A DNA stretch of 64,000 nt from Candidatus Woesearchaeota archaeon (GTDB lineage Archaea > Nanobdellota > Nanobdellia > Woesearchaeales > GW2011-AR9). The notes below the pieces were generated by a model that had not been told where the DNA came from, ran no database searches, and saw nothing but the letters and a program-made list of their open reading frames with translations. Below are positions 199 to 58,489 of this stretch, in pieces. The stretch spans positions 22,428-86,427 of the forward strand of contig JABHQW010000001.1 of NCBI GenBank assembly GCA_018696595.1. The letters are read 5' to 3'. How positions within the stretch are numbered: the stretch's first letter is position 1; every line of letters starts with the position of its first letter. The position numbers and the translations under genes were made by a program.

Positions 199-229
199 TC
201 ATATCACCTTTAGCGAGTTTTTTTGATTC

Positions 230-340
230 TCAAAAATGGAAATGGTTTGTATACGGGGCACGGCGGACATCGTACTCCCTTAGAGTACCCGCCTCAGCAA
301 GCTAGGGCCCCCGTATACAACTAACACCCATTTTTTGATT
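230..340 (-). ncRNA. Structured intergenic element, motif family A copy 1 (core 249-318)
   Basis: Stem GTATACGG/CCGTATAC encloses GCC..GA-GGCG..CGCC-GTGCC with inner hairpin GTACTC/GAGTAC; imperfect inverted repeat extends to about 230-340. Confidence 0.55.
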
Positions 341-9067: not shown

Positions 9068-9079
9068 GTGTTAGCAATC

Positions 9080-9192
9080 GCACTACCGCCAATGGAGGCG
9101 ATTTTCTGAATATGTTCTCAAGATTACTAATACATGAAGCAACGCGAAGTGCTTGAGAACTGAGGAAAATAATAAACGCCGTGCCGTAGTGC
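9080..9192 (+). ncRNA. Structured intergenic element, motif family A copy 2
   Basis: GCACTAC/GTAGTGC stem; CGCCAATGGA-GGCG..CGCC-GTGCC; inner ATTTTC/GAAAAT and GTTCTCAAG/CTTGAGAAC stems. Confidence 0.6.
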
Positions 9193-9253
9193 TATTTTTT
9201 CATTGAATTTTACCTAAACTTTTATAAACCGCTTTATTTCTTTATCTTTTATT

Positions 9254-9405
9254 GCCAGCGTCGCATAATCCGGTATTGCGCTGGTCTTGAAACCTTTGGT
9301 TTTGACCTAATACCAGATAACCAGTTCCTTTTGGAATTCCCGGTTCAAATATCCCCCAGGGAGACTACAAATCTTCCTGAAGATTTGAAAGTCCGGGCGC
9401 TGGCG
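9254..9405 (+). tRNA. tRNA-Ser(TGA) with two introns (37/38: 9292-9318; 59/60: 9350-9391)
   Basis: Acceptor GCCAGCG/CGCTGGC, G discriminator, long variable arm TTCCTTTTGGAA, CTGGT-CT-TGA-AA-ACCAG; 83 nt mature. Confidence 0.9.
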
Positions 9406-55559: not shown

Positions 55560-55674
55560 CGCCCCCGAAGAGATTCGAACTCTTGATCCGTCGGTATCTT
55601 CAAGAGGAGCTCTTGTAGATCTTGAGTTCCTCAAATAACAGCCGACTGCTCTAACCGGACTAAGCCACAGGGGC
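55560..55674 (-). tRNA. tRNA-Asn(GTT) with one 37/38 intron (55596-55635)
   Basis: GCCCCTG/CGGGGGC acceptor, GTCGG-CT-GTT-AA-CCGAC after splicing, AAGAG-TTCGAAT-CTCTT; 75 nt mature. Confidence 0.92.
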
Positions 55675-58239: not shown

Positions 58240-58259
58240 ATACCATAAAAACAATTGTG

Positions 58260-58422
58260 TTTTGAATAGAAAATATTTGTATACTGCGTGCCGGCGCGTG
58301 GATTTTATGAGCAGCGCCAAAGGAGGCACATTTTCTGAACAAAGTGAAGAAAATCTAAGTGCCGTGCCCTGCTCAAAAAATGCGCCTATTGCAGGCAATA
58401 TACAAAATCATGTTATTCAAAA
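58260..58422 (+). ncRNA. Long hairpin element, motif family A copy 3 (core 58309-58374)
   Basis: GAGCAG/CTGCTC stem; CGCCAAAGGA-GGCAC..GTGCC-GTGCC; outer stems GGCGCG/TGCGCC, TGTATA/TATACA, TTTTGAATA/TATTCAAAA. Confidence 0.6.
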
Positions 58423-58489
58423 ACAAAAAGTTTATTAAACACTATAGACTCATATAAAAATAACTAATAATAAAGGAGAGGTGTAAACT

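Follow-up and report, generated by a model that had tools for sequence, protein, structure and literature searches.

The window analyzed here, a 64,000-nucleotide stretch of one contig from Candidatus Woesearchaeota archaeon, belongs to a genome (G000) of 1.19 Mb in 8 contigs with 32% G+C that is 97% complete. A preliminary description of the window, made from its sequence, had placed one candidate structured RNA motif in three unrelated intergenic regions, at 9080-9192 on the plus strand between the genes for aCPSF1 and tRNA-Ser, at 58309-58374 on the plus strand and at 318-249 on the minus strand. All three copies are found at these positions, and inspection of each bore out the proposed layout, in which an outer stem (P1 and P1') encloses (C/G)GCC, four to ten nucleotides, GA, a strand beginning GGCR, a stem-loop with a 3' bulge, and YGCC followed by GTGCC. 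The features of the three copies are listed below.

9068..9214, plus strand: copy 1, a putative long-form, degenerate MITE of the 'GTGTTAGCAAAAGCACTAC' subfamily, as aligned with the intact 130-nt MITE of genome G080 and with relatives in G021 and G000; covariance-model score 51.3 bits
9080..9086, plus strand: 5' strand of copy 1 P1, GCACTAC, with its partner GTAGTGC at 9186-9192, a P1 also seen in further copies and genera
9087..9096, plus strand: 5' junction of copy 1, CGCC-AATGGA, of which GCC and GA are near-invariant throughout the family
9097..9100, plus strand: 5' strand of copy 1 P2, GGCG, with its partner CGCC at 9177-9180; P2 covaries in the family
9101..9170, plus strand: P3 and long-form insert of copy 1, with ATTTTC (9101-9106) facing GAAAAT (9165-9170); the insert forms an 8-bp helix (9115-9122 with 9152-9159) whose loop contains ATGAAGCAACGCGAAGTG, a block common to long forms
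9181..9185, plus strand: 3' junction of copy 1, GTGCC, conserved in the family
58255..58425, plus strand: copy 2, a composite rod of about 170 nt, fold z = -6.7; inner unit at 58305-58380, with P1 58309-58314 pairing with 58369-58374
229..330, minus strand: copy 3, a putative MITE of about 102 nt in the 'TGTATAC' subfamily, core 245-319, with a longer 5' junction GCC-CTAGCTTGCT-GA
331..340, minus strand: left flanking direct repeat of copy 3, AATCAAAAAA; the right repeat lies at 219-228

Copy 1 carries AATAAA as its 3' bulge and can be aligned to the intact G080 element from GTGTTAGCAA through GTAGTGCT. Its right terminal repeat is a diverged ATTGAATTTTACC, and of its left one nothing remains except, at most, GGTAA, which overlaps the aCPSF1 gene's own stop codon; judged from this alignment, copy 1 is a degenerate relic of about 9068-9214. 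The spacer between aCPSF1 and tRNA-Ser holds the element in G000 and lacks it in G001, a genome of the same genus, in which a small ORF of about 80 codons is found instead (L029:1200-1460; contig C27, minus strand); no metagenome contig was found to join the two sides across copy 1. The tRNA-Ser gene that follows (window 9255-9405, plus strand) was missed by Rfam and by ARAGORN, which reported zero tRNAs in the window. Read by eye, it contains two insertions, one past the anticodon region and another, about 40 nt long and missing from the G001 ortholog, within the T-loop. This is probably an archaeal tRNA gene with introns, one of them an extra specific to the species, and on such a gene the ARAGORN result is silent.

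Copy 2 is built as one unit within another, the inner unit occupying the place of P3 in an outer degenerate unit of opposite polarity. The outer stem pairs TTTGTATACTGC with GCAGTATACAAA, and the outermost arms are GTGTTTTGAATA and TATTCAAAAACA. Four composites of this type occur in G000; their intermediate arms are identical, whereas the inner P1, loop and outermost arms vary from one composite to another in a compensatory way. Nested model matches on opposite strands were also obtained in G002, G070, and G080. Two elements of G018 (L224, contig C9:5770-6165, and L223, contig C15:3330-3670), of 297 and 243 nt and with the same terminal repeats, contain further small hairpins within the 5' junction and P3 and fold overall as a single rod (z about -11), which shows repeated nesting of hairpin units. 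Copy 3, which has a sister copy at C5:71000-71110, is flanked by AATCAAAAA(A). Two stretches around it are replaced in metagenome contigs, and one such contig (run X11) joins position 219 to position 349 without copy 3, a weak hint of an element-free allele in that the short side of the joint has only 26 letters. The sequencing runs listed for the locus include none of RNA.

The consensus of the family consists of the outer stem P1, a YGCC-AANNGA junction, a five-base-pair P2 (GGCNC:GNGCC), P3 and a GUGC(C) junction. The covariation proposed in the preliminary description was upheld in 86 copies from 15 genomes, in which 20 of the 25 pairs were changed on both sides and standard pairs filled 97.6% of cells, compared with 71.5% in shuffles and 36-51% with slid partners. 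Each variant of P2 (GGCAC, GGCGC, GGCCC, GGGGC, GGUAC, GGGAC, GCCGC) and of P3 (AUUUU, ACGAG, AUGGCG, AUAAAUU, AUGAGUU) is met by a matching complement, and the pairing continues well outside the P1 that was first drawn. The unpaired letters GCC, GA, and GUGC are near-invariant across about 170 copies, and the asymmetric bulges, namely 5' (C)AANNGA, the 3' bulge and the GUGC(C) junction, are identical in all subfamilies. For this junction the energy model prefers a GC:GC plus G.U register over a three-base-pair YRY:GUG helix, two registers between which so invariant a junction does not allow a decision. Mismatches are more often G.U than A.C (31 vs. 15, p = 0.026), and a constant G.U is present in the junction, so that the given strand folds better than its complement, a hint that one particular strand folds. 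Conservation across the family is much stronger in this internal core than at the termini. Long forms have an extra P3 helix, the loop of which carries the common block (A)YGAARCAAMGYGNAGUG (window 9123-9151; G000 C2:52958-53077, C3:348587-348706, and C3:230587-230704), and short forms have a reduced block, GAAnnnnRUGA, in the P3 loop.

The three copies first reported are real but understate what proves to be a dispersed repeat family. A covariance model built from nine copies recovered 22 in the window's own genome, and two more with a longer 5' junction (window 245-319 and its sister on contig C5) lie beyond the model set, which brings the total in 1.19 Mb to no fewer than 24 copies, 75-190 nt in length; the word GCCGTGCC alone tags 11 of them. 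Some G000 copies, such as C3:210037 and C3:122270, are degenerate. Of 61 genomes in this taxonomic family, 25 contain the motif, the number per genome ranging from 0 to 28, while the same-genus genomes G001 and G002 have 0 and 39 copies, respectively, the range in the family being 0-39; none was found in 24 genomes representing 24 other families of the order. In a pattern scan of 185,579 species genomes, AT-rich matches were restricted to metagenome-assembled genomes (MAGs) labeled Woesearchaeota, Nanoarchaeota or (in TPA bins) Methanosarcinales, and the covariance model confirmed 86 more copies in these MAGs. The GC-rich bacterial matches of the same scan look like chance, as do two GC-rich matches in viral contigs.

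Orthologous sites are as patchy as genomes. The spacer that contains C3:344180 in G000 is near-empty in G002 contig C161, the only clean empty site obtainable between species, since intergenic DNA is too diverged for such comparisons at 70-80% coding identity. The spacer holding C6:176181 in G000 carries, in G002, a different subfamily in the opposite orientation (G000 C6:176181-176259 vs. G002 C28:6929-7045), and a further pair of orthologous spacers likewise holds different subfamilies (G000 C8:61296-61366 vs. G002 C19:927-998), which suggests insertion hot spots or turnover by replacement.

The genes beside the G000 copies encode RFC, NFACT halves, Fic, HIT, YdjM, PolB, an AsnC-type regulator and hypothetical proteins, with no pathway in common. 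NFACT is represented by two genes on different contigs, each adjoining copies of the element: one encodes NFACT_N (363 aa; L003:1825-2913, G000 C3:282924-284012, minus strand) and the other the end of NFACT_N with NFACT-R (272 aa; L001:2130-2945, G000 C2:53129-53944, plus strand), and the two could be a split gene or paralogues. The element had been described as sense to both flanking genes, which is true of the three copies in the window but not in general. Among 80 copies with both neighbors called, 29 lie in divergent spacers, 7 in convergent spacers and the remainder in co-directional spacers, where 27 are sense to both genes and 17 antisense to both, a difference that is not significant (p = 0.17). 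The preference for the promoter side is clear (divergent 29 vs. convergent 7, p = 3e-4). Copies stand 50-100 nt from the start codon with a TATA-like box in between, so that most are situated upstream of a promoter, or between two that diverge, and not within leaders or 5' UTRs, and no conserved promoter or T-run was seen at a fixed distance from the copies.

Complete elements measure about 90-190 bp and are bounded by terminal inverted repeats of about 13-16 bp, of which GGTAATGTCAAGTTA, TGGTCTGTCCAGAATA, and GGCTTCATCCGGAATA and their relatives are the principal forms. The form varies by genome, with TGGTCTGTCCAGAATA in G018, GGCTTCATCCGGAATA in G002 and G000, GGTAATGTCAAGTTA in G080, and GGCTTAGTCAAAT in G033, and pairs at the two ends include GGTAATGTCAAGTTA with TAACTTGACATTACC, TGGTCTGTCCAGAAT with ATTCTGGACAGACCA, and GGCTTCATCCGGAA with TTCCGGATGAAGCC. 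The terminal repeats enclose two long imperfect arms, which on one strand are the P1, junctions, P2, and P3 of the motif. In 151 distinct copies, the longest flanking direct repeat was exactly 9 bp in 38 cases; when flanks were mismatched as a control, 12 of 151 gave this length (p = 4e-5). These repeats are mostly symmetric, about 25 nt outside the model match, and are exemplified by CTATAAACA, CCCTAAAAT, CATTCAGC, TGCCCCACC, and CGAATAGTT, with further cases in CTTTTTTAA, ATTCTAAGG, and TGAGGGGA. Three identical copies of about 120 nt in G018 and four identical copies of 130 nt in G080 sit in unrelated flanks, each with an 8-9-bp duplication of its own, which points to recent activity. Repeats tend toward contig ends in short-read assemblies, and the four equal-scoring copies of G079 that were examined with their flanks each lie within about 100 nt of one.

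The element thus transposes, or did so in the past, at the DNA level through staggered-cut insertion; the terminal repeats, the 9-bp duplications and the identical copies in unrelated flanks together mark a miniature inverted-repeat element (MITE) inserted by a staggered-cut, DDE-type transposase. The family is non-coding, multi-copy and patchy both among genomes and among orthologous sites, and it combines short dispersed copies with terminal inverted repeats, a duplication of fixed length and insertion polymorphism. The motif is therefore very probably a MITE family, whose two long imperfect arms make up the apparent structure. It resembles the hairpin MITEs known from other prokaryotes (Correia elements of Neisseria, enterobacterial ERIC/IRU, pneumococcal RUP and the SM-type elements of Sulfolobus) in being short (90-190 bp), non-coding and multi-copy, in its terminal inverted repeats and target-site duplications, and in its patchy occurrence, its intergenic placing near promoters or gene ends and the long imperfect hairpin formed by one strand. 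It differs from them in its Woesearchaeota host and its 9-bp duplication, in a core that is more conserved than the termini, with asymmetric bulges that stay the same though the stems differ completely, and in cores that nest in opposite polarity.

Mobilization would occur in trans by a DDE transposase, and the most likely source is an element of about 1 kb found in relatives. This insertion sequence (IS) encodes a 325-aa IS5-family transposase (PF01609, 1.3e-15; NF033579, 138.2 bits, where the cut-off is 140), ends in terminal repeats GGCTCTGTAGAAWTGC and is flanked by 9-bp duplications (TATATTACA, GGAAAAAAC, CTAAGAACA). Complete copies with 16-bp terminal repeats are present in three Woesearchaeal MAGs (L240:1439-2436, L241:1075-2064, and L251:633-1626), each with a weak subterminal hairpin near one end. 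The interior of the IS lacks the motif core, the best model scores there being 15 and 13 bits, on subterminal AT-rich hairpins. Close homologues of the transposase (58-100% identity) occur in G060, G066, G080, G079, and G013, which have 12, 17, 25, 28, and 0 MITE copies, respectively, and copy number is higher in IS-bearing genomes than in the other 56 (Mann-Whitney p = 0.002), although presence or absence alone gives no significant association (Fisher p = 0.085). The termini of IS903 begin GGCTTTGTTGAATAAATC, and the IS of G060, G066, and G080 resemble those IS5-family members that make 9-bp duplications (the IS903 group) in their DDE transposase, their termini starting with GG and their 9-bp duplications. 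The MITEs share the GG start and the 9-bp duplications, and several also have TGT(C)A-GAA.

The termini of MITE and IS are nonetheless similar rather than identical (about 60-85% alike, GG-N3-TGT(C)A-GAA), and since the match is imperfect and MITE termini vary by subfamily, this IS is no more than a candidate for cross-mobilization. The IS was, moreover, not found in G000 or in G018 (91% complete) despite the identical MITE copies of the latter. We infer that the IS5-family element is the likeliest driver, with perhaps an even chance that this is correct. Other candidate movers were set aside: the IS6 family (PF13610), found in 13 of 61 relatives, is unlinked to the element and has unlike termini, and PF01609 as a whole, found in 25 of 61 genomes, is likewise unlinked, only the IS5 type of about 325 aa tracking copy number among its members. 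At 97% completeness, G000 itself yielded no gene for a Y1 transposase, TnpB or a DDE enzyme of the IS6 or IS4/IS5 type, nor any protein gene in repeated copies, so that the MITE copies it holds, about 24 in number and with copy 1 among them, are probably relics left stranded.

The preliminary description had taken conserved junctions with compensatory stems as the signature of a riboswitch, ribozyme, RNA-processing or protein-binding element; the motif, its covarying stems and its conserved junctions stood up to analysis, but a riboswitch, ribozyme or other gene-specific cis-regulatory RNA did not. Such an RNA would have been new, as the motif, in agreement with the earlier failure to place it by eye, matched no known family: with Rfam 15 at gathering thresholds the whole window returned one tRNA only (55560-55674), matches at E <= 10 around the three copies were at chance level with none better than E = 0.6, and no self-cleaving ribozyme (twister, pistol, hatchet, hammerhead, HDV-like) was among them. 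The compact multi-helix fold, conserved junction nucleotides and covarying stems do recall the riboswitch and small ribozyme families of Rfam 15, but the genomic distribution is that of a repeat and not of a regulon. A riboswitch keeps a fixed position in the leaders of related genes and is retained at orthologous loci, whereas here about 24 copies adjoin unrelated genes, lie 5', 3', and antisense to their neighbors in all four orientation classes, and are absent from orthologous sites within the genus, with 0 to 39 copies among close relatives. The preliminary description had itself named random strand orientation as a pointer to a REP- or MITE-like DNA element, and the 27:17 ratio, the terminal repeats and 9-bp duplications, the degenerate copies and the nesting in opposite polarity all go the same way. 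A gene-specific regulatory RNA is thus largely refuted by the distribution and is highly improbable. Judged by eye against the consensus structures, the motif did not suit a reading as a K-turn, for which a second GA is missing, or as a C/D box, H/ACA, bulge-helix-bulge, HDV-like, hammerhead, tetraloop-receptor or archaeal SECIS motif, for each of which a defining letter or spacing is lacking; P2 has five base pairs and not four between the bulges, and the junctions are constant and not guide-like.

Another reading is transfer in single-stranded form by an HUH (Y1) transposase (IS200/IS605 or RAYT type), which would make the element comparable to REPs or PATEs. Enzymes of the Y1 class, like integron integrases, recognize bulged hairpins that are imperfect and specific to one strand, in which the extrahelical bases are conserved and the stems vary, and several copies here are preceded by TTA(C/G/A)N. 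The dispersed imperfect palindromes, strand-specific hairpins and mosaic or nested layouts of REP/BIME elements with RAYT and of IS200/IS605-derived PATEs are similar to those seen here. IS200/IS605-type insertion produces no target-site duplication, however, and these elements require a Y1 HUH enzyme, whereas the Woesearchaeal elements have terminal inverted repeats and 9-bp duplications in a genome with 0 matches to Y1_Tnp (PF01797; 6 of 14 control genomes were positive) and 0 to the TnpB domain (PF07282). Movement by an HUH transposase is accordingly very doubtful, and a relic of a TnpB/IscB guide RNA (omega RNA) was rejected on the same absence of PF07282. A functional structured RNA carried by, or exapted from, the MITE deserves more weight and is compatible with mobility: the GCC-AANNGA and GUGC junctions and the covarying stems would be kept because the RNA works, whether as a protein-binding hairpin, a processing or stability element, a terminator or a read-through insulator. 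Near-invariant unpaired letters amid covarying stems in about 170 copies, asymmetric bulges common to all subfamilies, relics that have lost their termini with the hairpin intact, and two orthologous spacers struck independently in two species all speak for it, as does the 31:15 excess of G.U over A.C on the strand that folds better. Single-stranded DNA also tolerates G.T wobble, and this strand asymmetry therefore does not point to RNA alone. Orientation to co-directional genes is not significantly biased (27:17), most copies lie upstream of promoters or between divergent ones, in places covered by no known transcript, conserved promoters or T-runs at a fixed distance were not seen, and in sister species the corresponding loci lack the element. 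A functional RNA is on balance rather unlikely, though far less so than a riboswitch or HUH-driven movement.

The MITE reading must still account for the fold. Binding of a transposase to double-stranded ends does not by itself explain covarying arms with asymmetric bulges, whereas a folded single strand, either DNA during mobilization or RNA after transcription, does predict covarying arms with constant asymmetric junctions. Since subfamilies with different P1, P2, and P3 all keep complementarity and the same asymmetric bulges, the pairing of the arms appears to be selected at the level of the element. In mobilization one strand would fold back and bring together the two ends of a very short element, which is most likely the reason for the kept pairing, a role at the RNA level being the main alternative. 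In many G000 copies neither terminal repeats nor duplications can be recognized, but pairing in the core stems remains at about 96-99%, which plain neutral decay would not explain; host-level selection on the hairpin, or a second spreading route for the bare core, could do so. It is conceivable, if improbable, that the core is a single-stranded functional module, a protein-binding RNA or a single-stranded DNA hairpin, for which MITE backbones serve as vehicles and which the host keeps after the termini decay. Were this so, it would be a new structured nucleic-acid element, specific to Woesearchaeota and spread by transposition.

Identification of the MITE family removes a false lead, in that a covarying DPANN "RNA motif" very probably reduces to a transposon-borne fold-back, and it illustrates that the arms of an inverted repeat may satisfy a covariation test though no RNA function is involved. 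Literature searches returned no paper on Woesearchaeota together with miniature inverted-repeat elements and nothing specific among the papers listed for DPANN and MITEs. The family is perhaps the first MITE to be reported from Woesearchaeota, and an IS5-family element is its plausible driver. Recognition of the element is of use in annotation, as it makes spurious ORFs and breaks MAG assemblies, as at the contig-end copies of G079. In very reduced genomes of about 1 Mb, which contain from 0 to 39 copies, the family is a possible marker of recent mobile-element activity, and its well-kept asymmetric core and self-nesting pose the problem of how very short transposons are recognized.
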